A DNA stretch of 64,000 bases from an uncultured Alphaproteobacteria bacterium (GCA_902525035.1 CABZFN010000006.1:6538-70537); one strand, 5' to 3'. Shown: positions 1,678 to 21,054, counted from the stretch's first letter. Translations and numbers: made by a program. Notes: generated by a model from the sequence alone, not told the origin.

Positions 1678-4600
1678 TATCTTCTAACTCCCTATCATTT
1701 TGAGTCATGTATTGAGTTGTGATATTCGCAATACATTCTTTATCAATATTTCTCATCGTATTAGGAGTTTCCCAAGAATAACTATCAAATTCTTTATCAA
1801 TATAAGATCCTGCTTGATACATTAATCCCTCACTACTCTCACCATATTCTTTTTTATAATTATCATGTTCCCATATTTTCCATTCATTTAAAATTTTACT
1901 AAAAATTTTTTCAAAATTTATTTTTTCATTATTATCTATATTTTCTATTCTAGATTTTATAATTTCGTAAAAATTGTTTATCAAATTTTCTGGTACTGGG
2001 GTTGGAGTCATTGTAATATTTTTATTTCCAAAAGATCTTACATATGCAACAAGTATTCCATGTAATGCCCTCTTCAAAACAGGATATGCAAATGGTGTAA
2101 CACTCATCGGTTCAACTTGAGCATATAATTTTTGATGATATGACTTAAATTTTTCAAAATGAGACTTATCTCTAGGCCTCATATATCCATAAAGTGTACA
2201 AACCATACCAGGTCTTTCTTGCCAATTTCTACCTATCCTTCCAGATACCTGAATATATGAAGATGTGGTTTTTGGTTGTCCTAAAATTGTTAATAATGAT
2301 AGTCTATCAATATCAATACCTACTTCAATTATATTAGAAGCTAAACAAATATCTATGGGATAATTCTTTTTATCTGGATCAACAGATATTTCTAACTTAT
2401 CTATTGAACCTGGTATTTTTTCACTGCTTATTCGACTTGTTAATTCAAGAACATTATTTATTGTTCTAATATTTTTATAATCATCTCCATATCTTTTCCT
2501 TAGGTCTTTAATTCTTTCTTTAATGTCAACCTGAATCAAAGTTGTTGTATTACCCAGTTCTCTTAAACTGCCAAAAAAGTTCATTAAGGTAAACCATGGG
2601 TCTTGTTCTTCCTTTTTTAATTTAGTTACTGAATATAAGAGTCTTGAATAAATCCTTACTTGTGCAGTTTGTTGAGATTTATAATTAGGAGTTAGTAAAC
2701 CTATATATTTCTTTGGGTTTTTATATTTTTCTGAGTCTTCCTCTTTTTTATAACTTGCAAAGAAATTATCGGCAATATCCAAGCCAAGAGGTGGGAATAA
2801 TCTTACTTGATTTCTATTATATAAATCTTTTACCTGCCTTTCATAACTTCTAATTGTAGCTGTTGAGCAAATAATTTTGGGTTTGATAACTTCATTGTTT
2901 CTGTTATCTGTGCACAATTCTTCAATAACAACTTCATATAAGCCACACATTGATCCTAGAGGACCAGTAATTAAATGTAATTCATCTTGTAAAATTAATG
3001 ATGGAGGTGAGTTTATTCTTTCTCCATCTTCATTTAATCCAAATAATAATTTAGATTTCGGCTCCCAAGTTAATTGTGCAAATTTATCAACTGTGCCTAT
3101 TAATATAGTAGGTCTTTTTTCATAGACATCTTCATCTACAACATAAATCGGAAGTGTAGAATTAAAAGTACAATCTCGATTTCTACATTTAAATACAACA
3201 CAATTATTATTTGAGTTCAAACCAATTACTTTTGGTGCTGATCGCTTATTGAAGTTATATTTTTTTTCTTTATTTGAAACCTGACCAATTTCTGCTGAAC
3301 ACCAAGGGCATTTAGTTATTAAGAAATTATAAACTGCCTTTTTATTATTACCTGTCATAAGCCATGTGTAATAATTAATTGCACCAGGGTTTGTATCAGT
3401 TCCCTTATTTCTGTTAGGTGTAGAAGCTTGACCTAACCAAACACCAATTGAAAATCTTTTTTCTCCAAGAACATTGATTTCTCTTTCTCTAATTTTTTCC
3501 ATTGCACAAATAAGACTTGCAGCTCTTGTGAATTGTTGAGCTGTTAAAAGTCTTAGTGTGTATCTCATTATAACCTGTACACCATCATCATCTTTGTTAA
3601 TTAATCTTCTATAAAAAGATGTAAAAGCTGATAGCGCTAAATAAGCTTCTGTTTTTCCACCACCAGTTGGAAAAAAGATTAATTCAACATCATTGCGATA
3701 TTCATCTTTAATATCAACCGATGACTTAAGGCTTGATAATAGAAATGCTATTTGAAATGGTCTCCAATTACCTTTTCGTTCACTTGTTAAATTGATATTT
3801 GGCTCTTTGTATTCATCAGGAAAATAAACAGTGTGTTTTTCATCATCCCAGTAAGCTTGTCTTTTAGGAATTGATGATCTAATTTGTTGAGTGAGTATTG
3901 CTTCATTAGTTAATTGAAATGCTTTTAATGCATTATGATCATTTTTAATAAATTCTATACCATCATTCATTCTATTTAGTGCTGTCTCACATTTCTTTAG
4001 ATTATCTTCAGCGGCTTTTTTGTATTCTTCTGCCAGTAATTTAATTTCATTTTTTCTATCATTGATCCATTCATTATAAGATGATGTAATATTAGTTAGT
4101 AGCTCTTCCCAATTTGAATTTTCTAACCCTGCTAAAATTTTCATAGGTGTTTTTAATTCTTCTTTTTTATTTTTAATTTTAATATCTGGGGTAATATTAG
4201 GAGAGTCGTAAATAGGTAAACATGTAGCTTCTATATATGCGCAGTTTTCATTTGTATTAGGCCAATTTGCAGCACAACCATGGCCAATAGCAAATGTTTT
4301 ATTATTTCTATAGATTAAATCTAAAACTTTTTCTTCTTCATCTATTAATAGTTTTTCATAATCACTTTTAGGATACGGATAAAAATTATTCTGCTCAACA
4401 GAATTAGAATCTATAATTTTTACTTTAAAGCCAGATTGAAAAAGGCACTTTTCGTTTATTGGATTGTCATTGTCAGTTTTATTAATAAGTGTTGCAGTTA
4501 TTAGCTTATACTCCCCAATAGGTCTTACAAGGAGCTTAATATCCAAGTTTAAATTATTTGAACTGTTATAATATTTTTCAAGCTTACTATAATATCTTTC

Positions 4601-5242
4601 TTTTATATTATTAATTTCGCTGGCATTAAATTCATATTTGAAAATATAATCATTTCTAACATACCAAGATTTTGAACTTTCTTTTTTTCCTTCAATGTAA
4701 ATATCTTTCTTAGAATATATCCCACATGGCCGATCAGGACTTTCTACAACAATTTTATGATTATCTTCTAATTTACAAAAAAAACTAATACCAAGACAAC
4801 TTTGAAATCTAGTATTTGCTCCTGATAAGTCAAATTCTATATCAGAGTTTTCTCCTGGAGATCCTTTTCTAGACTGTATATTATTTAATTCTTTTATAGC
4901 ATTAGCTGAAACGGGATTATGCTCGTCTTCTTCATTAGGAATTGCAAAATTATCTATTTGATCATTGTTTTTTATTTCATTATCTGAAGTTTCGTTATGA
5001 TTTACTGGATATAGGACACCACACCCATATTTATTTAAAGGCGTCTCTGAGGTTAAGATCTCTTGTTTATTAACAACATCATAATACGGATTGGAAATAT
5101 TATTTATTTCATCTTTTGAAAATTGTAAATCTTTTGATACGTCTATACCTTTCCCTTCTGGCTCCATTATTAATTCTGGACCAAAAACTTCACTTATAAG
5201 TGAGTTTAACATAAAATCTCTTGATTTACTAAAATCTACCAT
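1670..5242 (-). CDS. drmA: DISARM DrmA-like SF2 helicase
   Basis: FPTGGGKTEAY, YTLRLLTAQQF, QDELHLITGPLG, STATIR, IEVGIDIDRL, YIQVSGRIGR; directly upstream of drmB. Confidence 0.9.
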   Translation of the reverse strand: MVDFSKSRDFMLNSLISEVFGPELIMEPEGKGIDVSKDLQFSKDEINNISNPYYDVVNKQEILTSETPLNKYGCGVLYPVNHNETSDNEIKNNDQIDNFAIPNEEDEHNPVSANAIKELNNIQSRKGSPGENSDIEFDLSGANTRFQSCLGISFFCKLEDNHKIVVESPDRPCGIYSKKDIYIEGKKESSKSWYVRNDYIFKYEFNASEINNIKERYYSKLEKYYNSSNNLNLDIKLLVRPIGEYKLITATLINKTDNDNPINEKCLFQSGFKVKIIDSNSVEQNNFYPYPKSDYEKLLIDEEEKVLDLIYRNNKTFAIGHGCAANWPNTNENCAYIEATCLPIYDSPNITPDIKIKNKKEELKTPMKILAGLENSNWEELLTNITSSYNEWINDRKNEIKLLAEEYKKAAEDNLKKCETALNRMNDGIEFIKNDHNALKAFQLTNEAILTQQIRSSIPKRQAYWDDEKHTVYFPDEYKEPNINLTSERKGNWRPFQIAFLLSSLKSSVDIKDEYRNDVELIFFPTGGGKTEAYLALSAFTSFYRRLINKDDDGVQVIMRYTLRLLTAQQFTRAASLICAMEKIREREINVLGEKRFSIGVWLGQASTPNRNKGTDTNPGAINYYTWLMTGNNKKAVYNFLITKCPWCSAEIGQVSNKEKKYNFNKRSAPKVIGLNSNNNCVVFKCRNRDCTFNSTLPIYVVDEDVYEKRPTILIGTVDKFAQLTWEPKSKLLFGLNEDGERINSPPSLILQDELHLITGPLGSMCGLYEVVIEELCTDNRNNEVIKPKIICSTATIRSYERQVKDLYNRNQVRLFPPLGLDIADNFFASYKKEEDSEKYKNPKKYIGLLTPNYKSQQTAQVRIYSRLLYSVTKLKKEEQDPWFTLMNFFGSLRELGNTTTLIQVDIKERIKDLRKRYGDDYKNIRTINNVLELTSRISSEKIPGSIDKLEISVDPDKKNYPIDICLASNIIEVGIDIDRLSLLTILGQPKTTSSYIQVSGRIGRNWQERPGMVCTLYGYMRPRDKSHFEKFKSYHQKLYAQVEPMSVTPFAYPVLKRALHGILVAYVRSFGNKNITMTPTPVPENLINNFYEIIKSRIENIDNNEKINFEKIFSKILNEWKIWEHDNYKKEYGESSEGLMYQAGSYIDKEFDSYSWETPNTMRNIDKECIANITTQYMTQNDRELEDNG

Positions 5243-6985
5243 TCAAATAATATCAATTTTTTTTCTCACATCTTTATGAAACAATAATACCAATTTATCA
5301 ATACATCTTGTGATACCTGTAAATAAGATTGAACGATCTTGATGATCATCTAGTTTATTAATATCTGTAATTATAACAACTTTTTTTTCTAGTCCTTTAA
5401 ATTTTCTAATAGTTGTTTTTATACAGTCGATTTGTAATAATATATCAAGTTTGTTTGTTTTAACAAAATTAATATCTTTTAAATCTGTAAGGCAAGAAGT
5501 TTCATCTGTCATCATTGTTAAAATAACAATATCTGTTGATTTATATTCTTGGTTTAATAATTTAATTATTGTTTCCTTAAGTTTAATTAATTGGTCAATA
5601 TTATTATTGTAAGGTAAAATTTCAGGTCTTGATATTTTGTTTTCTCTTAAATATCTTTTATCATAAGGATCCTTACCAAATTTACAAAAAGCATTAGCTA
5701 TATCTATAACATCTGGAGAATTTCGACAATTTTCAATTAATGGTAAATTTGTGGGTCTATAAATTTCTATAAAATCATTAAATTCACGTCTATTTTCAAA
5801 ATTTTGAATATTTTGAAAAAAGAAATCACCAAATATATAAAAATCTGTTTCATCTATTCCTTTATTAAGAAATTTATCAATAATAGAGACATAAACATCA
5901 TTCATTATTATGTCTTGTCCCTCATCGATTATTAAATTCTGAAACATTCCTGACATAAATTTGTATTGTCCACGATCCAATCTTTCAAGTGCTCTTAGAG
6001 GAAGATTTTCAAATTTTTCTTTTGATGGCTGATCATTCCACTCTCTCTCTGCATTAATTTCAAGTAAAAGTTTATTCATCGTATAAAAATGAATTTTTCT
6101 GCCAAATTTGGCATTAATACCCAAAAAAACACTTTTATAAAAGTCACCTAACATTTTATTGTAACACAAAAATAAGACTGTTTTATTTTGTGCTGCTAAT
6201 CTTGTAGCATGCTCTATTGCAATAAGTGTTTTTCCTGTTCCAGGTGGACCCTGAATTACACATTTTTTATTCACTGCAAATAAATCAAGAACTCTTCTTT
6301 GTTGCACAGTAAAAGCTTTATCTAATTCTTCATCTAATTCACTGTCTCTAATTTTTGAATTATTTCTAAATGTAATTTTTTTCCTTAGATCTTTTAATAG
6401 CTCAATATGATTTCTATTTGGACTATCTTCACTAATTTTAATTTTATTATAATTATCTCCCCAAGCTTCTATTAAAACTTTTTCAAATAAATTCATAAAA
6501 TCATCTTGCTTAGAAGAAATTATTTGAGATGAATTTATATATTCATATCTTTTCCATGATATATTTGATTTTTGTTCTAAATCACCACTCGTAAAGACTA
6601 CAACATCCCAAAAAAGGACTTCCTTAAGTATCTGATATTTATTTTTAAAATATTCATATAAACTTATTCTATTATCTCTAGCTTGTTTAAAAGGACTTTT
6701 TTTAGTTGGTGCATCTCGTCCTAAATACCAATTGCCTGTTTCTGGTTCAAAATCTATAGATTTGTGATCCTTTACTTCAACTACTAATACGCCTTTTCCA
6801 GGTATGATAATTATAAAATCAATTTCACCCATAAATTGAGTATGATGATGATGTAATTCTTGAGAATGATAAATTATCCAATCTCTTGTGTTTTCGTATT
6901 CTTTAAATTTTTTATAAAGTTTAAATTCCCCTTTACTTTTAAAGTCTGTTTCTTTTAGATTGTTTGGAAAGAATTCAATCATCAA
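5243..6985 (-). CDS. NERD (PD-(D/E)xK) nuclease fused to SF1/UvrD-like helicase
   Basis: N-terminal GEIDF...VVEVK...SPFKQA; Walker A GPPGTGKT; IIDEGQD; ENCRNS; TIRKFKGLE; FTGITR. Confidence 0.85.
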   Translation of the reverse strand: MMIEFFPNNLKETDFKSKGEFKLYKKFKEYENTRDWIIYHSQELHHHHTQFMGEIDFIIIIPGKGVLVVEVKDHKSIDFEPETGNWYLGRDAPTKKSPFKQARDNRISLYEYFKNKYQILKEVLFWDVVVFTSGDLEQKSNISWKRYEYINSSQIISSKQDDFMNLFEKVLIEAWGDNYNKIKISEDSPNRNHIELLKDLRKKITFRNNSKIRDSELDEELDKAFTVQQRRVLDLFAVNKKCVIQGPPGTGKTLIAIEHATRLAAQNKTVLFLCYNKMLGDFYKSVFLGINAKFGRKIHFYTMNKLLLEINAEREWNDQPSKEKFENLPLRALERLDRGQYKFMSGMFQNLIIDEGQDIIMNDVYVSIIDKFLNKGIDETDFYIFGDFFFQNIQNFENRREFNDFIEIYRPTNLPLIENCRNSPDVIDIANAFCKFGKDPYDKRYLRENKISRPEILPYNNNIDQLIKLKETIIKLLNQEYKSTDIVILTMMTDETSCLTDLKDINFVKTNKLDILLQIDCIKTTIRKFKGLEKKVVIITDINKLDDHQDRSILFTGITRCIDKLVLLFHKDVRKKIDII

Positions 6986-8588
6986 TAATATCTTTTGCTT
7001 TAATAGGAGTATCAGTTTGTGATCTCCATTGAAGCTTATCTTGGTTTGAAATTTTTAATACCCTATAAACACTAATACTAGCATTTGTATCTTGTAATTT
7101 AAATTCTTGATAACCATTTTGTTCAAGTAGAGATAAGTCACTTTCTTGTATTAAATTTAATATTTTTTTTCTTACAATACTTCCAGCAGATATATGTTTC
7201 CGATTAATTTCAGACATTGCAATTATATATTTTTGAAAATTTTTATCCTTTCCAAATATTTCTTCTAAAACTATTTTAAATTCATTATCATCTCTGGGTT
7301 TGATAGCCTCTTCCCTTAACCATCCACGAAGTTTTGATCTATTTAAATTTATACCTTTGTCATTAAGTGAAGCTATAAATTTATTATCAGCCTCAGCTTT
7401 TAAAGAAGGTACTTGTATCGTATTACCAGAATAGTTATCAGTTATATGTTCTTTTAATTTATTCTTCCAAGATTTTTGTAAATCTCTATTCTTTTGAGCA
7501 TTTTTTCCCATAAGTTTATTTGCTTCTTCAAATGTAAGATCTCTATCTGCGCCAGTTCTTAATAAAATATAATCCCCAGATTGAATATCTGATACTTCTT
7601 TTGGATTAAAAGATATTTTTGTTTCAAAATTTAGAACATCTTGCGTTGTATCAATACCTTCATGATTTCTCAAAAATACAATGTATCCACCTGCCAAATT
7701 TGCTAGTCTTGTATTTAATTGTTCTTCTGAAGTTTCACCAAATTTTTTATCCATTTTTTTTTGGATATATTCTATCTCAATTTCATCTGATATATCTTCT
7801 GGAGAATCTTCAACATATTTTGTTAAATTTATTATCTCATTTTCATACTTTATTGATGTAATATTTCTATTCCATAAAGGATGTGAGAATGAAAGTGGTT
7901 CTATTTTCTTTCCACCTATAAAATCATAACAAATACCTACTAAATTTTTAGATTTTATCGAAGTATACAAATAATGGTCATACCAAGAATGGTGACCTAA
8001 AAAAATAACTACATCATAATTATTATTAGATTTTCTATATTCACTTTCTTTTAAAATTTTTAAATATTTATTATCTTCAAAAACTCTCGATATATAATCA
8101 TATGATGATTGTGATTTTAAAATTATTGCACAATTTTTTTGATAAAATTTATTTAAAACATCCTCTAGTTTTTCACTAAAAGGATTATCATCACTTTGAC
8201 TCAATTCTTTATACATATCTACAAGATTATTTGCATGAGCTTTAAATTCTGGAAAGTGTATTTCACAATTTTTAATTTGTTCTCTTAATTCAGAAAAATC
8301 ATTTAAACCGTCTAAATTAGAATAATGACTAAATGGTAAAGGGGAAACAGCGCAACGGTATCTGTAACGAAGTAAAGTTCGCATAAAATTTACCCAATAG
8401 GTTTCGTTTCGTAATTCACCAAGTCTATTTCTAAATTTATAAGTTGATAAGTAGAATTCATTAAATTTTTTATTAGTAATATTTATTTTTTCGTATTTAG
8501 TTTTTGCTTCTGTATACAGCTCATGAATTATTTCTAAATCTTGTAAATTTTCATTATCAATATTTTTATTTAGATCGAAATACTCCAT
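6975..8588 (-). CDS. Hypothetical protein, possibly like the C-terminal part of DrmE
   Basis: 537 aa ORF overlapping the next gene in the drmAB operon; family assignment rests on position and weak resemblance only. Confidence 0.5.
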   Translation of the reverse strand: MEYFDLNKNIDNENLQDLEIIHELYTEAKTKYEKINITNKKFNEFYLSTYKFRNRLGELRNETYWVNFMRTLLRYRYRCAVSPLPFSHYSNLDGLNDFSELREQIKNCEIHFPEFKAHANNLVDMYKELSQSDDNPFSEKLEDVLNKFYQKNCAIILKSQSSYDYISRVFEDNKYLKILKESEYRKSNNNYDVVIFLGHHSWYDHYLYTSIKSKNLVGICYDFIGGKKIEPLSFSHPLWNRNITSIKYENEIINLTKYVEDSPEDISDEIEIEYIQKKMDKKFGETSEEQLNTRLANLAGGYIVFLRNHEGIDTTQDVLNFETKISFNPKEVSDIQSGDYILLRTGADRDLTFEEANKLMGKNAQKNRDLQKSWKNKLKEHITDNYSGNTIQVPSLKAEADNKFIASLNDKGINLNRSKLRGWLREEAIKPRDDNEFKIVLEEIFGKDKNFQKYIIAMSEINRKHISAGSIVRKKILNLIQESDLSLLEQNGYQEFKLQDTNASISVYRVLKISNQDKLQWRSQTDTPIKAKDIIDD

Positions 8589-9512
8589 TTAATTATTCCT
8601 AAAAATCATTGATGGATAACTTAAATTTAATTCTTTTAGAGAAGAAAAATCCTCAAATTCAATATAATTTCTTTCTGCAAATTTTTTCTGAAATGACTCA
8701 AAAGAACTTAAAAAATTTGGTTCATTTGGAGATAATACAATTATTGAATTATAGTTTTGATCTTCATAACTATCTAATTTTAAAAATGAATTCGATCCCC
8801 AATAAAATTTAAATTTTACATCCTTAAGCTCTTCCTGGTCTGCTATCTTTAATGGTGATGCAAGTGTTGAAAAAAAACTTTCACCCTGATTAACATAATC
8901 TTTAATTCTAATAACATCATTGAAGTTTGTTCCACCTATTTCAAAATTTTTTATTTCTTTTTCTATTGTAGTTTTTTGTGCAATAATATGAATTTTAGAT
9001 GTTAGAGATGACTTCAGAATATCTATTTCATTTGTATCTAAAATTTTCTTCTCTAGTCCGTTGAAAGTATTCTTAATTTTTTTTCCTATCTTAAAATTAT
9101 CTTCCTGAATCATTTCTTCACTTAATACCTCAATACTTTCTATAGCTTTTTTTTCAGGTATTAGTTGAAAAGCATTCTTAATTTTAATTCGTGCAAATTT
9201 TTGATTATTGCCTAAAATATCTCTATCAACAACCTCAATAAATAGACCTTGAGTTGTTTCACCATTGATATCTCTAAATTTAATTTCTGCCCCTTCATTG
9301 ATTTCATCTAAATTTGTGACTGCTGAATTCCCTGAAGCTAAAACATTTAAATAATTTTTTACAAGACCTAGTAAAATAGCTGGGCATGAAAAATGTAACG
9401 TTGGTAAACAAATACAAAAAACAAAATTTTTATCATGGTATTTTGCCAGTTCACCTCCTATGGATGCAAGATCCATGAACCATTTAGGAAGAGTTGAATT
9501 TAAATTATTCAT
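8589..9512 (-). CDS. Hypothetical protein, first large gene of the DISARM-like operon (possibly like the N-terminal part of DrmE)
   Basis: 307 aa ORF abutting the 537 aa ORF with no gap. Confidence 0.5.
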   Translation of the reverse strand: MNNLNSTLPKWFMDLASIGGELAKYHDKNFVFCICLPTLHFSCPAILLGLVKNYLNVLASGNSAVTNLDEINEGAEIKFRDINGETTQGLFIEVVDRDILGNNQKFARIKIKNAFQLIPEKKAIESIEVLSEEMIQEDNFKIGKKIKNTFNGLEKKILDTNEIDILKSSLTSKIHIIAQKTTIEKEIKNFEIGGTNFNDVIRIKDYVNQGESFFSTLASPLKIADQEELKDVKFKFYWGSNSFLKLDSYEDQNYNSIIVLSPNEPNFLSSFESFQKKFAERNYIEFEDFSSLKELNLSYPSMIFRNN

Positions 9513-9563
9513 ATGTTTAATTTATATAATATTTTAAGTTACAGTTTATTAATTTCACTATTT

Positions 9564-9743
9564 TCATGAGCTCTTTTTATTAATTGTCTTAATAAATTCT
9601 TTAATATAATTGTTATTTGCAACAGAAAAATTCTTACCTATTTTGCTCTCATTACCTTGTTTTTTTGATTTCAAATTAGCTAGTTGTTCAAAATTTTGAG
9701 TAGTTGTAGTTTGGTATTTTTCATCTTTATTGATAATGCTCAT
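9564..9743 (-). CDS. Small hypothetical protein, 59 aa (MSIINKDEKYQ...KKSS; missing from ORF track)
   Basis: Strong RBS AAGGAG just upstream of ATG; downstream of promoter motif 9766-9792. Confidence 0.6.
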   Translation of the reverse strand: MSIINKDEKYQTTTTQNFEQLANLKSKKQGNESKIGKNFSVANNNYIKEFIKTINKKSS

Positions 9744-9765
9744 AAATCTCCTTCTTTTACAAAGT

Positions 9766-9792
9766 AGACGTTAATTAACGACAAATATTTCA
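9766..9792 (-). promoter_or_regulatory. Putative ECF promoter P1
   Basis: Minus strand TGAAATA-tttgtcgttaattaa-CGTCT (N15). Confidence 0.6.
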
Positions 9793-9800
9793 TTAAAATA

Positions 9801-10127
9801 TTAATTAATTTTATAGCTCGTTCTGGTATCCAGACTGTTTAAAAACCTATTAACAGCGTTATTTAGGCTTTTTTTCTCATAATCCAGAATTTCCTGCGTA
9901 AAAATTACTTCATCAACAAAAGAGTCTATAAGCATCCTTAGGCATCCAACTAAATCTATATTATCTTTTTGAATTCTCGCTAAAGCTCTTCCTATACAAT
10001 AAATTTTTGTTACTTCATTTGCTTTACTATCTTTTGTAAAAATTAATTTTATTTCATTATAAATTTCTTTTTCCAACTCAGATACTTCATTATATTCTTG
10101 ATCACTTAATTGATTTTCTTGTACCAT
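9801..10127 (-). CDS. Hypothetical protein
   Basis: 108 aa ORF with purine-rich GGGGAA upstream. Confidence 0.65.
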   Translation of the reverse strand: MVQENQLSDQEYNEVSELEKEIYNEIKLIFTKDSKANEVTKIYCIGRALARIQKDNIDLVGCLRMLIDSFVDEVIFTQEILDYEKKSLNNAVNRFLNSLDTRTSYKIN

Positions 10128-10190
10128 TAACTATTTCCCCTATATTAAACTATGACCTAACCATGCATGAATGTCATCTTTGTGAAAGAA

Positions 10191-10364
10191 TTATCTATTC
10201 TTCATTTTTCTTAAAGATTTTTTCTTTCTAATTTCTTCAAAAAATTCATGATAATAATAACCGTATTTTTTTTCAGCCAGTAAAGATGAGAGTTTTTGTT
10301 TTAAAGTTTGTTTTCTATTAAAAAAATTAGTATTTTCATCGCTATTTTGAAATTCAAATTGCAT
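10191..10364 (-). CDS. Small hypothetical protein (57 aa, start revised to MQFEFQ)
   Basis: GGAGG RBS before ATG at 10364; the longer ORF-track start lies inside promoter P2. Confidence 0.55.
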   Translation of the reverse strand: MQFEFQNSDENTNFFNRKQTLKQKLSSLLAEKKYGYYYHEFFEEIRKKKSLRKMKNR

Positions 10365-10389
10365 TTTATGCCTCCATTTACAAAAAAGG

Positions 10390-10416
10390 AAACGTGCCAA
10401 TTTCAAATTTATTTCA
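10390..10416 (-). promoter_or_regulatory. Putative ECF promoter P2
   Basis: Minus strand TGAAATA-aatttgaaattggca-CGTTT (N15). Confidence 0.65.
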
Positions 10417-10441
10417 TTAATAATTTGAGATTTTAATATAC

Positions 10442-10528
10442 CAAAGCCTTAGAATAAGGCTCTGATACAACTTTAACAAGGTAAAAATCTAGTAAAACTG
10501 TGAAAGGGTAAGCAGTTTTACTAGATAT
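10442..10528 (-). ncRNA. Candidate two-hairpin small RNA or leader
   Basis: Perfect 14-bp inverted repeat 10487-10500/10513-10526 and a 7-bp inverted repeat 10445-10461, starting right after promoter P3. Confidence 0.4.
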
Positions 10529-10533
10529 TAATA

Positions 10534-10560
10534 AAACGTTTAAAATAGAAATTTATTTCA
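10534..10560 (-). promoter_or_regulatory. Putative ECF promoter P3
   Basis: Minus strand TGAAATA-aatttctattttaaa-CGTTT (N15). Confidence 0.65.
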
Positions 10561-10577
10561 AAATAATTTATATTTTT

Positions 10578-10604
10578 TGAAATAAATAATAATCCTGGCC
10601 GTTT
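10578..10604 (+). promoter_or_regulatory. Putative autoregulatory ECF promoter P4
   Basis: TGAAATA-aataataatcctggc-CGTTT (N15) directly before the sigma gene. Confidence 0.6.
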
Positions 10605-10606
10605 TC

Positions 10607-11275
10607 ATGAGTAACAATGTATCAAATTATAAAAATATGATTGCTAATATTTATAAAACAAACCTTAAATATTACGCTTTTGCTCATTATCCTCGTGATG
10701 CAGAAGAATTATTAGGACAAACAGTTGAGTATTTTTTAGATAGTTATGATGTTTTTGGAAAATCTAATTATCAACAATTAGAAGCTAATATGATCATGAA
10801 GATTAAAAATTTGCGGATTGATTTAGTAAGAACTTTAAATTCTAAGTCATTAATTGCTGAAATAATTGATCCTGGAGATCTAAAGCAAATTGGAAAAAAT
10901 ATTGAAAAAGGTGCAAAATTATCAACTAATGAAATTAATGAATTAAACGCACAATTAGAAGATAAAAATCTTAAAAAAATTATTTACCGAGGTGTATCTC
11001 AGAATATTTCTGGAAGTGATGATTTTGGGCAGTCAGAAATTGATAAATCTAAACAACTTATAGATGAGGATCCTTTAAAGAGTATTAAGCTAAAACAAGC
11101 CTATGATATGGTTGATCAACTTGGCAAAAAATGCAGTGATCTTATAAGAGCACAAGTAACAAAAGAATTAAAATACAAACAAATAGCAAAAGAATTTAAC
11201 ATGAAAATGGGTACTGTAATGACTAATTTAAGTCGCTGTTGGAAAAAATTAGAAGAATTAAACAATGCAAAATAA
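10607..11275 (+). CDS. ECF-family RNA polymerase sigma factor with a long sigma2-sigma4 insertion (true start may be ATG 10637)
   Basis: Sigma2 DAEELLGQT...KNLRIDLVR; sigma4 LKYKQIAKEFNMKMGTVMTNLSRCWKKL; overlaps the anti-sigma gene. Confidence 0.85.
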   Translation: MSNNVSNYKNMIANIYKTNLKYYAFAHYPRDAEELLGQTVEYFLDSYDVFGKSNYQQLEANMIMKIKNLRIDLVRTLNSKSLIAEIIDPGDLKQIGKNIEKGAKLSTNEINELNAQLEDKNLKKIIYRGVSQNISGSDDFGQSEIDKSKQLIDEDPLKSIKLKQAYDMVDQLGKKCSDLIRAQVTKELKYKQIAKEFNMKMGTVMTNLSRCWKKLEELNNAK

Positions 11276-11975
11276 AGATATTGAAATTTTATTCCAAGGC
11301 TATTTAGATAATGAGCTTGATCAAGAAGATATAATAAAAGTTGAGGAATATTTAAATGAAAATGAGGAAGCTAAAAAGGTCTTTGAAGATTTAAAGAAAA
11401 ATCAAGAATTTTTTAAAAAAACTTTTGATGAGTTTAAAAATCTACCAGTTGATCAATATATTTATTCGTTAATAGATAATTACCCTATCAAAGAAGTTAC
11501 TAAACCAAGTGTAAGTATTTTTAAAAATATATTATCCAAGTTCTCATTTGTGAATTTTGCTGGCGGTGCTGCGATTGCAAGTGTACTTGGTTTTTTTGCA
11601 TTTAATATGCAAATTAATTCAGTTCAATATTACACAATGGCTAATAACGAAATAGACACTATAGCACTTAATCAAACGGTCAAAAAAGACATCGAAAGAG
11701 TGTTAAATCAAAATAATCAAAGTGTATCTGGAAAAATTGAAGAATTAGAAAATATTCTAAATACTGATAATTTCAAAAATATTATTCGAAAAAATATGCT
11801 AAAAAAATCAGATAAACTCTCGAATAAAGACAGTATTAATCTCAGTGCATTAAATTTTACTGTTAATCAACTTGATGACAATAATAATTGCATATTAATT
11901 GAAGTTACTGATAAAAATAATTCAATTTTAAAAACTTTTTGTAATTTAGAAAATGAATGGGAACTTATAGATTGA
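11265..11975 (+). CDS. Membrane-anchored anti-sigma factor
   Basis: N-terminal YLDNELD..D..KVEEYL anti-sigma domain lacking the HxxxCxxC zinc ligands; one TM (FAGGAAIASVLGFFAF); C-terminal domain with two Cys. Confidence 0.8.
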   Translation: MQNKDIEILFQGYLDNELDQEDIIKVEEYLNENEEAKKVFEDLKKNQEFFKKTFDEFKNLPVDQYIYSLIDNYPIKEVTKPSVSIFKNILSKFSFVNFAGGAAIASVLGFFAFNMQINSVQYYTMANNEIDTIALNQTVKKDIERVLNQNNQSVSGKIEELENILNTDNFKNIIRKNMLKKSDKLSNKDSINLSALNFTVNQLDDNNNCILIEVTDKNNSILKTFCNLENEWELID

Positions 11976-12028
11976 TTTTTTAAATTAAATCTAATTACTC
12001 TTATTGACTCCATAAATTCCCATATGTT

Positions 12029-12508
12029 TTACAGTGCTTTCCAGTCTTTAAATTCCTCTGGCTTTTCTTGTTTATCTTTGTAATTTATTTCTCCTTCGAT
12101 TTTACCACCATCATCTATCTTAATAGATCCATAGTAAATTTTCCCATTTATATTTCCTGAAGATTTAACTCCTAAAATCTCTTTTGCATTTACTTCTCCC
12201 TCTATGTAGCCTTCCACAGACATTGTTTTAGCTTTTACATTTCCAAGTATTTTTCCAGAATGATGGACATTAATTTTAATACATTCAATATCTCCTTCTA
12301 CTACACCTTGAATATTAACTTCATTTTCGGCTTTTATGTTACCTTTAATCGTAACACCCTCACCTATCATTAGTGTACTATTAGTAATTTTATCAAGTTC
12401 CTTTGAAAATTCACTTTTTTCATTTTTGTGTTCACCAATACTTATTGGCTCATAAAGTTTAGCTTCAATTTTTTCTTTGTAATTATTTTTATTCATTAGT
12501 AATGGCAT
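12029..12508 (-). CDS. Bactofilin (polymer-forming cytoskeletal protein, CcmA family)
   Basis: IGEGVTIKGNI...IQGVVEGDI...G.I.G beta-helix repeats. Confidence 0.9.
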   Translation of the reverse strand: MPLLMNKNNYKEKIEAKLYEPISIGEHKNEKSEFSKELDKITNSTLMIGEGVTIKGNIKAENEVNIQGVVEGDIECIKINVHHSGKILGNVKAKTMSVEGYIEGEVNAKEILGVKSSGNINGKIYYGSIKIDDGGKIEGEINYKDKQEKPEEFKDWKAL

Positions 12509-12588
12509 ATTGTTCCTTTGTTAGTTTGAAAACTATTATGAAATACAAAAGAGAATATAATTCGTCAGAAGTATGTTGATTTTGTGAT

Positions 12589-13158
12589 TTATATTTTTTG
12601 CGCTGAAACAATGTATCGATACGGAGTACCTGATTGAATGGCATCAAAGGGATAACATGTAACTAATAAAAGAATATTTTTTTTATTCGTCATGGAAAAA
12701 TTATTATTCTTTACATCAAGTATATAAAAATTATTTACGGTATATGAATGCCATTCATCTTTAATATCTTGTAGTCTAATAATGTCTCCAACCATTAAAT
12801 TTTTTAAAAAAGATCCATGACTATCTCTGTGCATAGAAATTATGGTAGTTTTTCCCTCATATGGAAGGAAACTTTCCTGATGAAAACCTGGGGCAAAAGA
12901 TAGTGCCTGACTAGAGGTTTTATTAAGAATAATATGTTCTGCATTCAGTTTGGGTACCTCTAATTTAAAAATTGGATAACTATCCATTTTTGACCAGGGT
13001 TTTATATTATTTTTTGTAATTAAAGATTTTTCCCATGCCTGTTTTAGAAATATTTGTGCTAGGTGAGATTTTATTTCTATTTTTAAGCCTTGATAAAGAA
13101 AATATCCTCCTCCTACTAGGAGGACAAATAGGAGAAGAATATTAATTTTTCTTTTCAA
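12589..13158 (-). CDS. Marine proteobacterial (class GN) sortase
   Basis: N-terminal TM, LAQIFLKQAW, KPWSKMD, HRDSH, LVTCYPF. Confidence 0.9.
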   Translation of the reverse strand: MKRKINILLLFVLLVGGGYFLYQGLKIEIKSHLAQIFLKQAWEKSLITKNNIKPWSKMDSYPIFKLEVPKLNAEHIILNKTSSQALSFAPGFHQESFLPYEGKTTIISMHRDSHGSFLKNLMVGDIIRLQDIKDEWHSYTVNNFYILDVKNNNFSMTNKKNILLLVTCYPFDAIQSGTPYRYIVSAQKI

Positions 13159-15246
13159 TCAAATAATTCTTTTAGAATGAAAAAGAAAAAACGAACTAAC
13201 AAACAATATAAAAGCTATTATGAAATAAAGTTTTTTGTTTGTATCAGTTTGAACAAAATGAATTTTTAAATCAGGAATTTCATCTAAATTAACTTCATTT
13301 AGATCATTTAAATACATTTGTTTCTGAGAATACTTACCTGGTATTAGCACATTGGGATCAATCCAACCTTCAGGTAAGTTTTGAGGTAATTGAAAAGAAT
13401 TTAAAGTTTCATCACTAGATCTCGAAATTTGATCGTCTACCGCAACTAAGGATGTAAAATTAGTAACTAAATTATTTTCCAGTGCTAGTTTAACTATTCT
13501 TCTTTTATAGGTTTCCACATCAAGGGCACCAATTGCATTAAGAAACATAATTCTATCAATTTTTTCCCTGGCCCAAAGTTTATTGATTTTACTACCTTCA
13601 TTTATGTCACCTTTTTTGATTTCATATAACCATTTATCTCCAGTTGATGTATTGCCGGCCAGTTTTATTGGGTAAATAAGTTCTTCTTTTTTAGTATTGC
13701 CAACTTTCATATAAAAACTAATTGGATCACCGGCAATAATGTCTGGTAATTTTACTGGAAGAAGTTCATGATCATTCTCCATAAAAACGCGTAAATTTTT
13801 AATTACAGGATGATTAATTTTAAATAATAATTCGTTTGTTTTTTCCTCAAAAGTGAAGGAATCAACATAAATAAAAGATCCACGACCACTTTTTGATAAA
13901 CCTTTTACAAGATAAGAATTAGGTGAATTGCCAATGCCTACAACGTGAAATCTTTTATTACCAATATGTTCATTAACAAGAGCTATAGCTTGAGTTTCAT
14001 ATGCAATGACTCCATCTGTCATTAATATTATTTGATGATTATTCGGTAAAGGAGTTTTTTCAAAAATAGCCTCGTATATAGGTGCTAGCATTTCTGTGCC
14101 ATTATCAGCATTAAAATTCTTCACAAATTCTAATGCAATTTGTTTGTTTAATACTGAGGCTATTTTAGGTTTAGAAAATAACTTATAGTGCTTATCATCA
14201 AAGGCGATAATATTAATATAATGATGCTCTGGAAATTGATTAATGAAATCAATCAATAATGATTGCATTTGCTCTAATGAATCACCACTCATACTTCCTG
14301 AAACATCAGCAATAATCGTAATAGCCGATTGTTTATTTAATTTTAAATCTGATTTTTTAATTTGTGGGTTTATCAAGCCATAAATATAAAGATCTCCATT
14401 AAATTCTTCATAATAAGCCTGAATATATGGTTCGGGACTGACAATTGGCTTGAAAGTTAAAATAAAATCTTTTGTCGATGGCATTGATTCATCTGCAAGA
14501 TTAATTTCATAATGTTTGTTTGATAATTTATTAATAAATAAGTCTTCATTACTGCTTGGTACAGAAATATCAAAACCAACGTTAAGATTGATTGAAATAT
14601 TATAGGGATTTACTGTGTAGTCAGTACTCTCGTTAATAGGTGAGTGTATTTCAGGATTTAATTTTAATATTTTGCTTTCGTTAATTATCTTATTATTGGA
14701 ATTTTTTTCATATCGATGTGAAATTACTGTTGGAAGTCTCAAGCTATATTCATTATTTTGAAAAGATAGAGTATCTTGATAACTAATTTCAATAATAATC
14801 ATTTCTCCTGGTTCAATATTAGCAATTTTTGTTTTAAAAATATTTGCTCTACTAGAACTCACTAATGACGTTTTTTTTCCATCATTCTTAGCTTTTTGAT
14901 AAGTTTCTTCTGCCTCCTCCTTTATTTGAATAATTCCATTAATATATCGATCACCAACTTTCATTTTTAATTGATCAACAGCTGATTTTTCAGGGAGTGG
15001 AAATAAATATACTGCCTCTGTATGCTCTTTCGTTGGATTAATAAAATATTGACGCACCAAAGTCGTACTAATTAACCCCTGAACATTAACAATAATATCA
15101 GTTTTTAATGTTGGAGCTTCGAATATTTGATTACCCTCTTTTAGTTCATGTTCTTGAATAAAAAAAAGACCGTAGGGTTGATTGATATTAGCTAGGGATG
15201 GATATGAGAAGAAGAAAAATAGTAAGAATAAATAAAAATATTTCAT
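13159..15246 (-). CDS. VIT-vWA domain marine proteobacterial sortase target protein
   Basis: Signal peptide; VIT (EAVYLFPLP); vWA MIDAS DVSGSM and TDG; LWAREKI; TSLVAVD; C-terminal FVQTDT + TM + basic tail. Confidence 0.9.
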   Translation of the reverse strand: MKYFYLFLLFFFFSYPSLANINQPYGLFFIQEHELKEGNQIFEAPTLKTDIIVNVQGLISTTLVRQYFINPTKEHTEAVYLFPLPEKSAVDQLKMKVGDRYINGIIQIKEEAEETYQKAKNDGKKTSLVSSSRANIFKTKIANIEPGEMIIIEISYQDTLSFQNNEYSLRLPTVISHRYEKNSNNKIINESKILKLNPEIHSPINESTDYTVNPYNISINLNVGFDISVPSSNEDLFINKLSNKHYEINLADESMPSTKDFILTFKPIVSPEPYIQAYYEEFNGDLYIYGLINPQIKKSDLKLNKQSAITIIADVSGSMSGDSLEQMQSLLIDFINQFPEHHYINIIAFDDKHYKLFSKPKIASVLNKQIALEFVKNFNADNGTEMLAPIYEAIFEKTPLPNNHQIILMTDGVIAYETQAIALVNEHIGNKRFHVVGIGNSPNSYLVKGLSKSGRGSFIYVDSFTFEEKTNELLFKINHPVIKNLRVFMENDHELLPVKLPDIIAGDPISFYMKVGNTKKEELIYPIKLAGNTSTGDKWLYEIKKGDINEGSKINKLWAREKIDRIMFLNAIGALDVETYKRRIVKLALENNLVTNFTSLVAVDDQISRSSDETLNSFQLPQNLPEGWIDPNVLIPGKYSQKQMYLNDLNEVNLDEIPDLKIHFVQTDTNKKLYFIIAFILFVSSFFLFHSKRII

Positions 15247-15326
15247 TCTTATTTATTGAATGCAAATTGTGATTAAATCAGGACCAAATTATGATATTTT
15301 TTTGTAATCTTAAAAATTTAATTAAT

Positions 15327-15353
15327 TGAAATAAATTCATCTGTGTTACGTTT
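15327..15353 (+). promoter_or_regulatory. Putative ECF promoter P5
   Basis: TGAAATA-aattcatctgtgtta-CGTTT (N15). Confidence 0.65.
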
Positions 15354-15389
15354 ATTTATTAGAAATATTAAAATATGAAGGAAAAATAA

Positions 15390-15596
15390 ATGAAAGATGT
15401 ATGGCTGATTATTGGTATTGCAGTTATAATAAAATTTAGTGCTTTATCTATAAGTAATTATCAAAAAAAATTTTATGCAAATTATCAATTAGAATTTGAT
15501 AAAGATATTATTAAACCTGATTGGAATAAAAATTTGGAAAAATATAGAAATAAATTTAAGAAAAATAAATACATTACTAAGAATGGAAGTAGCTAA
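15390..15596 (+). CDS. Small membrane-anchored hypothetical protein
   Basis: GAAGGA RBS, hydrophobic N-terminus, downstream of P5. Confidence 0.6.
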   Translation: MKDVWLIIGIAVIIKFSALSISNYQKKFYANYQLEFDKDIIKPDWNKNLEKYRNKFKKNKYITKNGSS

Positions 15597-16296
15597 TATT
15601 ATTATTCGATATCTTTGCAAAACTAAGAATGCCTGTGTAAAAAACACCAGTATCTAAGCAAATTCTATTATTTTTTTTAATGATCTTTTTGGACGGCGTA
15701 TGTCCATGTACAATTATCTTTTCAAAAGGTTTATCAGAATTTAAAAAAGACCTATCTCTTGTCCAAAGCATAGTCTGTTTTTTTTGTTTATTTAATGGAA
15801 TATCTGGATCAATGCCTGCATGAACAAAATAATAATCACCCCATTGATAATTTAATTTTAATTTATAAAAGAAATTTCTATGTTCTTGAGGGAGAAAATT
15901 TATAAATTTCTCATAAATTTTCTTATCAAATGATAATTCCAGATTATCATCTATGTAATTTTCCATTTTTTGACCATAACTTTGCAATGTTTCTAAACCT
16001 CCATTGCTTATCCAAAGGTATAAACTACCATTTTTTCCAGATATAAAATCAAGAAGCATTTGCTCATGATTGCCAAGCAAATAGACAACATCAAAATTAG
16101 CAGGTTTGAAATTAATAAGAGAATTTATACAATCTTTTGAATCAATTCCCCTATCTATATAATCACCTAGATATATTAATAGTTTTTTTCCTGGAGTTTT
16201 ATTTGAGTCTTCCTGAATTTTGTTTTGAATATCAAGTAATTGTTTAAGGTGGCCATGTATATCACCCACAACATAAGCAATATCATAATCATTCAT
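15577..16296 (-). CDS. Calcineurin-like metallophosphoesterase (PPP/PphA-type Ser/Thr phosphatase family)
   Basis: GDIHG, GDYIDRG, GNHE, HAG, HGHTP, LDTG. Confidence 0.92.
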   Translation of the reverse strand: MNDYDIAYVVGDIHGHLKQLLDIQNKIQEDSNKTPGKKLLIYLGDYIDRGIDSKDCINSLINFKPANFDVVYLLGNHEQMLLDFISGKNGSLYLWISNGGLETLQSYGQKMENYIDDNLELSFDKKIYEKFINFLPQEHRNFFYKLKLNYQWGDYYFVHAGIDPDIPLNKQKKQTMLWTRDRSFLNSDKPFEKIIVHGHTPSKKIIKKNNRICLDTGVFYTGILSFAKISNNNISYFHS

Positions 16297-16297
16297 T

Positions 16298-16510
16298 TTA
16301 CCAGCTTATATTACAGTCATGGCATAAAAATTGTTCCCTGCGAATTACACAGCCTCCAAGAACAAAATTTAGTTCTTTTCTATCTTTAATCGCATTTAAT
16401 TCTTCTACAGTTTCATCTGTTGGAAGGCCATAAACAATCATAGCTACTCTCTTACCATTACATTTTGGACAAATTTCACCATGTGCATATTCATCATTTA
16501 ATTTTCCCAT
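16298..16510 (-). CDS. Small zinc-ribbon protein
   Basis: CPKC...IVYGLP...LGGC...CHDC..W. Confidence 0.75.
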   Translation of the reverse strand: MGKLNDEYAHGEICPKCNGKRVAMIVYGLPTDETVEELNAIKDRKELNFVLGGCVIRREQFLCHDCNISW

Positions 16511-16512
16511 TA

Positions 16513-16740
16513 TTAATATTCTTCAAGATCCTCTATTTCAAAATCCAGGTCATGATCTGAGATTCGATATTTATAATGAGCTTCTGGATGTTTTAACCAT
16601 GTTTCAAGAGGTGTATTTTCAGCAGCACTAATCGCATTTTCACCTGCCTGAATTTCATCTGGTGCATCAATTTCAAATACTTCTTCTATTTCGTAGGTTT
16701 CAGTAACAATAGCCTTTACTGTACATTTAAATTTATTCAT
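16513..16740 (-). CDS. Small acidic hypothetical protein
   Basis: 75 aa, very Glu/Asp-rich, 2-nt gaps to both neighbours. Confidence 0.65.
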   Translation of the reverse strand: MNKFKCTVKAIVTETYEIEEVFEIDAPDEIQAGENAISAAENTPLETWLKHPEAHYKYRISDHDLDFEIEDLEEY

Positions 16741-16742
16741 TT

Positions 16743-17039
16743 TTATACCTGTGAATGTTTAAATTCTAAAAAATCAATTAATCTATTAAATCCAGAGCTA
16801 TACATACGATTTCCACGATTATTTAAATCTTTGTATTCTTTAATTGAAAAATATTTTTTTCTTAAACTTATGAGTTCAGATATTTCATTAATATCTAAAA
16901 TTGAGAGTTTTATCACCCCTCTTTTTATTAAGTCATTTGAAATTTTATTTACCACTCTTGAATATTTTTCAATAGATGACTCTGATAATCTTCTATAATT
17001 TTCCATCCATTGTCTAAATTCTGTTTCTTTATTTTTCAT
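16743..17039 (-). CDS. Small helical hypothetical protein, possibly DNA-binding
   Basis: F..WM...LSESSIEKY...RGNRMYSSGFN pattern, recalled from N-termini of some HNH/McrB-type nucleases; AGGGAA RBS. Confidence 0.6.
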   Translation of the reverse strand: MKNKETEFRQWMENYRRLSESSIEKYSRVVNKISNDLIKRGVIKLSILDINEISELISLRKKYFSIKEYKDLNNRGNRMYSSGFNRLIDFLEFKHSQV

Positions 17040-17068
17040 TTTTTTCCCTATTTGTTATTTAGAAAAGT

Positions 17069-17095
17069 AAACGGGTGATATTTGGTTTTATTTCA
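17069..17095 (-). promoter_or_regulatory. Putative ECF promoter P6
   Basis: Minus strand TGAAATA-aaaccaaatatcacc-CGTTT (N15). Confidence 0.65.
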
Positions 17096-18734: not shown

Positions 18735-18827
18735 TAATTAAAAGTATTATTAAATATTTAAACATTCAATGATATTATTAATTGAATAACATTTTTATCT
18801 TAATAAAATTGAAAAAATGATTAAAAT

Positions 18828-19406
18828 TTAAAATCCCATTAATCTTAAGGCATTATCAGTTACAAGTTCAATTCTTAGACTATCATACCAACCATATTTT
18901 TTTTCTGTTTTTGAATTCCAGTCAGTACAAAAAACCCTTATCAAGTCACCATTTTCATATTCTTTTGTTTTTATAAAATAATTTCCCTCATCATTAGAAA
19001 ATGATCTATCCTCAAAAACTATATTTAATTCAATTTGTAATTCATTAACAATTTCCTCTTTTTTTATCTTACAAGAATCAATATTTTTATTTTTTGTATC
19101 GTAAAAAATCGCGCCAGCTATCTGAATTATTTTGTAATCATTATCATTTTTTAAAAAAGCCATCTGAATAGTATCGTAGCCAGTATTAGATTTAAAATCA
19201 AATTCAGGCACATTAAAATGAAGAACATCTGTGCCATAATAGTCATCGGAATTATTTAGTATGTAATCTTTTTTATAGGAATTTAATAAACTATCCCCTA
19301 AGCTAAGCCCCTCTATTTCAAAATTAGAAATATCTTCTCCAAAAACATTAGTAGATATAATTAGTGCAAATAGGACTAAAAATTTTTTCATATAAATATC
19401 AAACAT
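18828..19406 (-). CDS. Secreted paralog-family protein, copy 4
   Basis: Signal peptide + DISNFEIEGLSLGDSLL...C..KK..I...C.DW. Confidence 0.8.
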   Translation of the reverse strand: MFDIYMKKFLVLFALIISTNVFGEDISNFEIEGLSLGDSLLNSYKKDYILNNSDDYYGTDVLHFNVPEFDFKSNTGYDTIQMAFLKNDNDYKIIQIAGAIFYDTKNKNIDSCKIKKEEIVNELQIELNIVFEDRSFSNDEGNYFIKTKEYENGDLIRVFCTDWNSKTEKKYGWYDSLRIELVTDNALRLMGF

Positions 19407-19479
19407 TAATAAATAAATTTGTTATCATTTGAAATAAATTTAATATTTAATTTAAATTTAATCAATTGTATTGTTTACA

Positions 19480-21042: not shown

Positions 21043-21054
21043 ATTAAGAAATTT

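Follow-up and report, generated by a model that had tools for sequence, protein, structure and literature searches.

A divergent sigma factor with a beta-prime-derived insert and its likely local regulon beside a DISARM-like cluster in an alphaproteobacterial island

An AT-rich assembly of an uncultured Alphaproteobacteria bacterium (GCA_902525035.1; 1,380,078 bases, 78% complete) carries on its contig C6 an island made up of a DISARM-like cluster, a sigma/anti-sigma gene pair, and small open reading frames (ORFs). Its size, its GC content, and an order of two families suggest a streamlined marine alphaproteobacterium of the HIMB59/AEGEAN-169 kind (ranges in PMC10308909). We analyzed 64,000 nucleotides of this contig (CABZFN010000006.1:6538-70537, hereafter the window), with attention to six promoter-like sites, P1 to P6, to the sigma factor of extracytoplasmic function (ECF) type encoded beside them, and to the segment of RNA polymerase beta-prime origin that this sigma factor contains (Table 1).

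Table 1. Coordinates, in the window, of the promoter-like sites, the sigma module, and the adjoining genes.
Feature	Coordinates	Strand	Remarks
P1 promoter-like site	9766..9792	-	predicted start 9758; intact in G053, decayed in G044
P2 promoter-like site	10390..10416	-	predicted start 10381
P3 promoter-like site before hairpin RNA	10534..10560	-	predicted start 10526; same place in L002, L003, L004
P4 promoter-like site	10578..10604	+	predicted start ~10613, codon 3 of sigma gene
P5 promoter-like site	15327..15353	+	before 68-aa ORF with hydrophobic N-terminus
P6 promoter-like site	17069..17095	-	before 98-aa/75-aa/70-aa/metallophosphoesterase gene run
Divergent ECF-type sigma, 222 aa	10607..11275	+	sigma2 3-80, insert 83-130, linker 131-153, sigma4 154-221
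Insert (residues 83-130)	10853..10996	+	homologous to RNA polymerase beta-prime, E. coli ~1264-1306
Likely anti-sigma, 236 aa	11265..11975	+	overlaps sigma stop codon
Likely small RNA	10438..10526	-	two hairpins (10487-10526, 10438-10470), first loop CU-rich
57-aa ORF behind P2	10191..10364	-	no family; ortholog in L004; family scan with four extra upstream codons
108-aa helical ORF	9801..10127	-	no family; loose RNA-contig ends at 10126 and 10128
59-aa ORF behind P1	9564..9743	-	no family; ortholog in G053
307-aa first gene of DISARM-like cluster	8589..9512	-	no family
DrmE-like protein	6975..8588	-	Pfam DrmE_C 27.2 bits, cut-off 27; no PADLOC match
NERD nuclease-helicase	5243..6985	-	
DrmA helicase	1670..5242	-	PADLOC DrmA 702 bits, E 1.7e-211; NCBIfam DrmAS 872 bits, below cut-off 950
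DrmB	1..1677	-	extends 233 bases past window; E 1.7e-71

The sites share the pattern TGAAATA-N15-CGTYT. All six listed in a preliminary description of this DNA were recovered at the same positions and on the same strands, against 0.02 expected, and none of 100 dinucleotide shuffles reached six matches, a test that alone overstates the case because the motif was defined after the fact. That description had found no full intergenic match outside a 7.3-kb stretch, and the six are indeed the sole exact matches in the assembly, in which spacers of 10-21 nt other than 15 yield a single match in all. Five of the six extend to TGAAATAAA. The sites are non-palindromic and, as had been noted, oriented toward a downstream gene or hairpin: P1, P2, P5, and P6 end 22, 25, 36, and 29 nt before an ATG, with a purine-rich stretch resembling a ribosome-binding site in between. 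A 14-bp hairpin follows P3 at a distance of 7 nt, and only 2 nt separate P4 from the ATG at 10607, as is also the case in the metagenome loci L002 to L004. Because the motif was defined post hoc on the window, a matrix trained only on the five sites of L004 provides a less circular check; it returned P2 to P6 as the genome's top five (22.0 bits; next 18.1), with P1 outside its top 40. A genome scan with the site matrix for a wider regulon gave no convincing site outside the island.

L004 encodes a sigma factor 71% identical to that of the window and carries its five sites in the same order, both boxes being kept in all of them and the spacers changed in four. Across the 11 sites of the window and L004 the -35 element is always TGAAATA and the -10 element fits CGTYT. 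L002 and L003 differ so little from the window that they contribute hardly any further information. Among 186 other genomes of the order, 76 have an exact motif match and none has more than three, with reversed-pattern controls of similar size; the sigma was found in none of them, the weak matches being to the core ECF sigma, beta-prime, and a few other ORFs. Further sigma loci were likewise not found in the genome-contig set, the viral-contig set, and 400 genomes of the class. The proposal in the preliminary description that the pair drives its own island is thus supported by the number of sites, their uniqueness in the genome, L004, the survey of the order, and the L004-trained matrix. The sites quite probably delimit an ECF-type regulon that is local to the neighboring sigma/anti-sigma pair and is composed of small proteins and probably a 90-nt hairpin RNA. 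Once freed from its likely membrane anti-sigma, the sigma would switch on its own island only, with the small proteins as putative targets through P1, P2, P5, and P6 and the two-hairpin RNA through P3.

Transcription would start 8-9 nt past the -10 box. A pyrimidine-purine step occurs at position 8 or 9 at each of the 11 sites in the window and L004 (chance 0.45 per site, and 0.008 for the six window sites), and starts mapped for the ECF26 sigma of S. meliloti lie 7-9 nt past CGTYY (Table 1 of PMC6180224). This rule was set down before RNA runs were compared. Contigs stop at 9758, the predicted P1 start 8 nt past the box, in six of the seven runs and two of the three studies; in the seventh (X3), a contig covering 9739-10381 passes 9758 and stops at the predicted P2 start, 9 nt past the box. 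Four runs of one sample (X1, X2, X4, and X5) carry 11 non-templated letters at the P1 start, corresponding to 5' poly(A) on the RNA, so that the contig end is fixed only to 9755-9758; the X7 contig begins at 9758 without extra letters, and the X6 contig has 14. Because the P1 start is an A run, reiterative initiation (PMC12709180) may be the favored source of these letters, with a library tail as a possible alternative; oligo-dT mispriming was rejected by reasoning, as the orientation does not fit. The P1 transcript is present in both oligo-dT libraries. We take the contig stops as a weak hint that the predicted P1 and P2 starts are promoter starts, one that is silent on which sigma acted. The coverage in X5 at 15401-15576 and 16436-16545 lies outside the predicted P5 and P6 starts, and the P3 RNA and P4 are uncovered in the seven runs, which has no bearing either way.

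ECF sigmas are minimal sigma factors with a short variable linker. In the window sigma, residues 131-156, behind the insert, are acidic (seven D/E, two K) and low-confidence or disordered in the model, and are reminiscent of the sigma finger that enters the active-site cleft; roughly 73 residues separate the helix end at 80 from the helix start at 154, above the 50-residue ECF criterion. That criterion (a linker of <50 residues) was part of the original definition and was relaxed later (PMC8103513). Solved ECF domains resemble the model over residues 2-81 (Z 10.2, root-mean-square deviation (rmsd) 2.0 over 77 residues) and over residues 157-222 (Z 10.7, rmsd 1.8 over 66 residues). All 10 family members have a Pfam sigma4 match and four have one to sigma2; the window sigma, at 25.3, falls just short of the cut-off of 25.7 and lacks a sigma2 match, and no sigma3 occurs among the matches listed for the 10 members (25 of 28 families). 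The protein is rare, with four close homologs in 5.8 billion proteins and six below E 1e-30 among 1.84 billion representatives; the ECF census, in its available sections, describes divergent sigmas as escaping its filters (PMC7826278).

The protein encoded next to it combines an N-terminal anti-sigma-like domain without zinc ligands, a hydrophobic segment at ~93-113, and a C-terminal domain with two conserved cysteines, and an ortholog 49% identical stands in the same place in L004. No Pfam anti-sigma, TPR, or CHAT match was obtained and the N-terminal domain has no His/Cys ligands; its atlas neighbors carry zf-HC2 or 17kDa_Anti_2 on 12-44% of members, which is a lead only. From this layout the protein is likely a membrane anti-sigma, which would bind the adjacent sigma.

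At P4, the preliminary description had left two options, a sigma start at 10637 or a site that does not serve the full-length ORF; the latter is probably correct, and a start at 10637 fits less well. Met1 is taken as the real start because codons 1-10 are under purifying selection (pN/pS 0.14 versus L004, from four synonymous changes over 4.7 sites), Tyr8 hardly varies across 10 relatives including distant ones, and helix 1 begins at residue 3 of the model. The selection on these codons and the position of the helix rule out Met11 as the main start. Met11 is nevertheless kept in seven of eight members, the distant homolog P0005 is called from its position, and a short isoform may be made from it. 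P4 itself is conserved, but its predicted start falls in codon 3 while Met1 is translated; with this start P4 could not yield full-length sigma, which would need a further promoter. None stood out upstream, sigma70-like matches to a housekeeping promoter being at chance level (8 found, 8.7 expected). A leaderless P4 transcript was also rejected: all nine sites other than P4 in the window and L004 have T at position 3 past the box, making a shared start there unlikely. The likeliest use of P4 would be to raise the overlapping anti-sigma as negative feedback; a promoter inside rpoE6 has similarly been proposed to serve the anti-sigma (PMC6180224, available text).

P3 faces an ORF-free stretch of 90 nt whose first hairpin begins at the predicted start. 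The fold has z values of -6.6 to -8.8 against shuffles in four loci, with compensatory change in two of 28 pairs among four sequences, and no Rfam family came near or at gathering score. Judged by its position and fold, the stretch is likely a sigma-dependent small RNA, which may act as antisense to the sigma mRNA leader. A search for trans targets was abandoned as a lead: the CU-rich loop paired with 1386 gene starts no better than 30 shuffled loops did (best -17.4, shuffles -13.1 to -19.3), and the regulon genes ranked 188 or lower. Hfq had no match in the 78%-complete genome.

P1 connects this module to the DISARM-like cluster. As the preliminary description had stated, the 59-aa ORF behind P1 ends at 9564, 51 nt before the first, 307-aa gene of the cluster, and the gap lacks a terminator (best fold -6.1 kcal/mol; zero terminator-like sites in 9400-10700). 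Contigs run from the P1 start into the 307-aa gene in three of the seven runs and two studies (X4 and X6, 9448-9758; X7, 9400-9758 and on). Read-through from P1 into the cluster is reasonably probable, and it would add transcription to the cluster in strains with this junction; that it induces the defense genes to a meaningful degree seems unlikely. The preliminary description had gone further and proposed that an envelope signal could induce anti-phage genes by this route. Read-through is the part of that proposal that finds support, and a dedicated circuit is the part that finds none, in view of L004, G044, and the DrmA-bearing genomes without the sigma.

A switch dedicated to inducing the DISARM-like operon in response to an envelope or phage signal, after the manner of the experimentally tested pair DdvS-DdvA (PMC11506125, available sections), is in our judgment improbable. 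The missing terminator, the three bridging contigs, and the junction kept in the related genome G053, in which 108-aa gene, P1, 59-aa ORF, and cluster follow one another and other genes take the place of the sigma, all speak for it. However, the sigma module is complete in L004, where the genes behind P1 are unrelated (a 61-aa ORF of another kind, a 72-aa ORF that is secreted, and a protease) and include no DISARM. The 108-aa gene directly adjoins the cluster in G044, and the P1 immediately before that cluster is changed in both boxes; G064 and G170 have no intact site upstream of theirs. DrmA occurs in five of 187 genomes and the sigma was found only in that of the window; neither sigma nor anti-sigma was found in G044, G053, G064, or G170 (50-94% complete), the anti-sigma search having had no positive control. 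The anti-sigma, moreover, has neither zinc ligands nor a TPR-CHAT sensor, and no site lies directly before any drm gene. Relatives carry the cluster without the sigma having been found in them, and elsewhere the cluster must be expressed without P1. The link between sigma and defense is real but optional, and a literature search, short of most subscription papers, found no paper linking an ECF sigma to DISARM.

The 108-aa gene upstream of P1 has 10 homologs, is found after at least three distinct upstream sequences, and adjoins the DISARM-like cluster in three genomes; copies lie at 9801-10127 in the window, 8332-8658 in L058, and 10096-10422 in L059. Small secreted aromatic-rich peptides with similar ribosome-binding regions are encoded at L004 1300-1518, L058 7902-8090, and L059 10664-10852; that of L004 has 72 aa with an internal repeat and lies behind a motif site, and those of G053 and G044 have 62 aa. 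Outside the window, at L095 1126-4424, the DISARM-like cluster is flanked by integrase-like and Sir2-like genes (assigned by eye) and a Cas4-like nuclease.

The sigma protein itself is the more unusual element. Its eight full-length clade members carry an insert of 45-55 residues right after sigma2, kept in all eight down to 37% identity, and the nearest relatives are without it. The sigma family profile matched ORFs of 1370-1395 aa, and the eight inspected were beta-prime, the matched segment lying just before the conserved LLGITKASL motif; for the genome's own beta-prime, the closest solved structure is chain 7ye1_D, a Caulobacter entry. Because the eight beta-prime segments of a first reverse search had been picked by the sigma profile and were hence biased, the test was rebuilt from 26 segments of other alphaproteobacterial families chosen via the genome's own rpoC (29 loci fetched, 26 of which yielded the segment). 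When 2870 proteins were ranked by the new profile, all nine sigmas with the insert took places 2-10, immediately behind beta-prime and ahead of any sigma lacking the insert, with modest single scores (best E 1e-5; window copy E 0.4). Alignment of insert and beta-prime with hhalign gave E 1.7e-8 and a score of 37.4 (highest among 100 column shuffles, 16.4), and the top PDB sequence match of the insert profile was beta-prime (E 0.0095 of 177,635). Folded alone from sigma sequences only, the insert reached a predicted local distance difference test (pLDDT) score of 82, and its model matched RNA polymerase chains in every listed Foldseek row (best template-modeling (TM) score 0.69-0.70, E 0.004; best match rmsd 1.4 A over 53 columns); the three highest VIA rows were RNA polymerase chains as well (Z 6.4, 6.2, and 4.0; next 2.9). 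Within the full-length model, it matched beta-prime with Z 6.2 and rmsd 1.7 A over 51 residues. On the other side of the balance, none of the insert's Foldseek matches attains E 0.001, the VIA Z values for it lie below the caution line of 8, and it has no DNA-level likeness to the genome's rpoC, 284 of 500 codon shuffles scoring as well. We regard homology of the insert to the beta-prime segment as nearly certain, and the models predict that it adopts the same fold.

The insert is ~30% identical to beta-prime, and the missing DNA-level likeness to the host rpoC indicates an old capture; recent capture from the genome's own rpoC was rejected on the same ground. In a sigma tree of 47 rows, built with the insert columns removed and nine entries left out (eight sequences of <150 aa and the fragment P0004), the eight insert members form one group (support 100/99) among insert-less sigmas, from which a single gain follows. 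The insert has pN/pS of 0.13-0.41 in three comparisons, all well below 1. Tree and substitution pattern together indicate that a small marine clade acquired it a single time and that purifying selection acts on it. In the beta-prime chain 8dkc_D, the top PDB match, two adjacent stretches within residues 1253-1326 match the insert profile, suggesting a tandem module copy. The literature search, with the same limit, did not turn up any sigma factor described as containing a beta-prime segment.

The slot right after sigma2 is the place of sigma3 in housekeeping sigmas. Our first choice for the role of the insert, a guess with an even chance of being right, is an accessory sigma3-like surface domain, which would touch the core enzyme or the fixed-length spacer DNA. 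Less probable, and second in our ranking, is a tolerated passenger, an old accretion kept because it folds and without a role in transcription: close relatives without it are whole sigmas (P0011, P0012, and P0014), the insert is the least constrained domain versus L004 (pN/pS 0.41, with sigma4 and sigma2 at 0.22-0.31), and most of the positions conserved in it are conserved in beta-prime too, which would fit constraints from folding. Retention in all eight full-length members to 37% identity, with pN/pS well below 1 in each of the three comparisons, counts against a mere passenger, as does the tendency of streamlined genomes to shed idle sequence.

In third place, and quite improbable, is a decoy or sensor that mimics a beta-prime surface bound by phage or host proteins, whose attack would free or alter the sigma; such binders would switch on the small-protein island and, through P1 read-through, the DISARM-like operon, a consequence we hold to be just as improbable. 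The beta-prime homology and the location in a defense island fit a decoy, and host-family segments score best, the genome's own unselected copy reaching 48.8 against at most 47.0 for the 26 other families. However, this ranking is explicable by AT-driven residue bias and by the selection of eight of the nine family segments through the sigma profile, and a decoy should track the host surface, whereas the insert has ~30% identity and no DNA-level likeness. The DISARM link is not conserved, and no binder of the surface is identified.

With an accessory surface domain as the preferred role of the insert, we consider it quite probable, reading from sequence, that the six sites are -35/-10 promoters of the adjacent ECF-type sigma, in which a beta-prime copy of 45 residues lies folded between the two DNA-reading domains and which, freed from the anti-sigma, would serve its own island only; the pairing of sigma and promoters, the anti-sigma role, and the P4 feedback are what we infer. 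Several observations pull in the opposite direction. Only two independent locus types carry the sigma and its sites, the window-like one (with L002 and L003) and L004. G053 keeps an intact P1 and no sigma/anti-sigma was found in its 78%-complete assembly, so that another sigma may read P1 there. The RNA data are assembled contigs, which cannot prove starts, strand, or level and in which DNA may be present; a contig across two genes is no proof of a single transcript, and the runs were selected with positions 9400-12000 of the window. The stop at P2 is seen in a single contig, and the contigs listed for X1 and X5 end within the 59-aa ORF without bridging. A different reader of the sites (the core 178-aa ECF sigma on contig C8, an RpoH-like sigma, or a DNA-binding repressor), with the adjacent sigma a bystander, would accommodate the four other sigma2-containing genes of the genome, the core ECF among them, the P1 of G053, and a P4 unfit for simple autoregulation, but it is very improbable, because the core ECF is carried by many relatives (weak 179-aa matches) that have no site cluster, its own upstream region is without a TGAAATA-N15-CGTYT-type site, and the sites are non-palindromic, oriented, and found nowhere else in the genome.

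Other genes of the island lie outside these main subjects. Between the sigma pair and P5, with no motif site before them, are genes for a class GN sortase (above cut-off), a VIT-vWA marine sortase target (below cut-off), and a bactofilin (12589-15246 and 12029-12508); no long RNA contig was seen for the sortase and VIT-vWA genes among the matches listed, which is not evidence of silence. The gene run behind P6 (15577-17039) encodes a 98-aa protein with weak integrase-SAM-like matches, a 75-aa protein, a 70-aa protein with a Cys motif, and a calcineurin-like phosphoesterase. Further along, 17505-23713 encodes a trypsin-like protease with acidic repeats, four similar secreted proteins of ~195 aa in tandem, and a Sel1-repeat caspase-domain protein; in L004, a protease related to the trypsin-like one is encoded close to the sigma module.

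Local ECF regulons are common and, as circuits, ordinary; the novelty lies in the sigma protein. The insert shows that polymerase modules can move into sigma factors, and it provides a natural experiment on which structures the sigma3 slot can accommodate and on the function of a little-studied beta-prime surface. A promoter so strictly confined to its island should lend itself to easy laboratory testing and is a candidate orthogonal switch, and the optional P1 junction illustrates how a mobile sigma cassette may arrive upstream of a defense cluster and then be lost.

Among known systems, sigma-W of B. subtilis, with the consensus TGAAAC-N16-CGTA, has a genome-wide regulon, a zinc anti-sigma, and no insert. 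The window sites share its geometry (TGAAAT-N16-CGT), and SigW is the top PDB sequence match of the family profile, over sigma4 only (E 0.0011). The best plasmid match of the window sigma (E 0.7) belongs to an S8-peptidase-linked sigma/anti-sigma pair, whose hhalign probability to the family is 98.7 and whose sigma lies outside the insert clade, at an open fork of the tree. A described parallel in organization, along with other ECF26 sigmas, is the ECF26 pair RpoE6-EcfR6 of S. meliloti which, in the available sections of PMC6180224, has a small regulon with its main targets adjoining the sigma gene, promoters of the type GGAATA.../CGTYY with starts 7-9 nt past the box, an anti-sigma composed of an N-terminal domain, one membrane helix, and a periplasmic domain, a sigma-dependent promoter within the sigma ORF, and a small RNA in the locus. 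Unlike in the ECF26 system as described there, the -35 element is TGAAATA rather than GGAATA (the -10 element, CGTYT, agrees with the ECF26 GT consensus), and the window has no divergent protease and no upstream lipoprotein gene; the divergent unit of its sigma consists of the hairpin RNA and small ORFs, and the trypsin-like protease is further off in both the window and L004, with no site directly before it. The anti-sigmas align only over the first 32 residues, and the RpoE6-type sigma is gapped over the insert.

Defense offers two further comparisons. According to the available text of PMC11506125, DdvS-DdvA of M. xanthus is an ECF sigma with a single-pass anti-sigma in a defense island with several sigma-dependent promoters nearby, as is likely in the window; there, however, the promoters directly drive CBASS and CRISPR operons and phage defense was shown, whereas in the window a single promoter would reach the defense genes, by read-through only, over a link that is not conserved. 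The zinc domain and the 900-residue TPR-CHAT sensor of DdvA (PMC11506125) are both missing from the window anti-sigma. The cluster itself resembles DISARM in uniting DrmA, DrmB, a cytosine methyltransferase, and a DrmE-like gene (PMC9142583, available sections). It differs in having an additional NERD-helicase and 307-aa gene, a methyltransferase next to drmB that is convergent on the opposite strand (best match MTase_II; DrmMII E 1.3e-52), and no drmC found, with no PLDc_2 match in the 78%-complete genome and none in the contiguous cluster; drmC has been described as dispensable and often missing (PMC9142583).

For the insert, the nearest precedents are BBM1 and BBM2, small polymerase modules that were duplicated and inserted at new beta and beta-prime sites (PMC2939025, PMC1586193, bioRxiv 2022.01.17.476619, each in its available part); a test for BBM found no beta-subunit insert among the 50 VIA rows listed. 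BBM1 is said in these sources to occur in 'various proteins', which their available text leaves unnamed, and the located cases lie within beta or beta-prime, whereas the module described here sits in a sigma factor.

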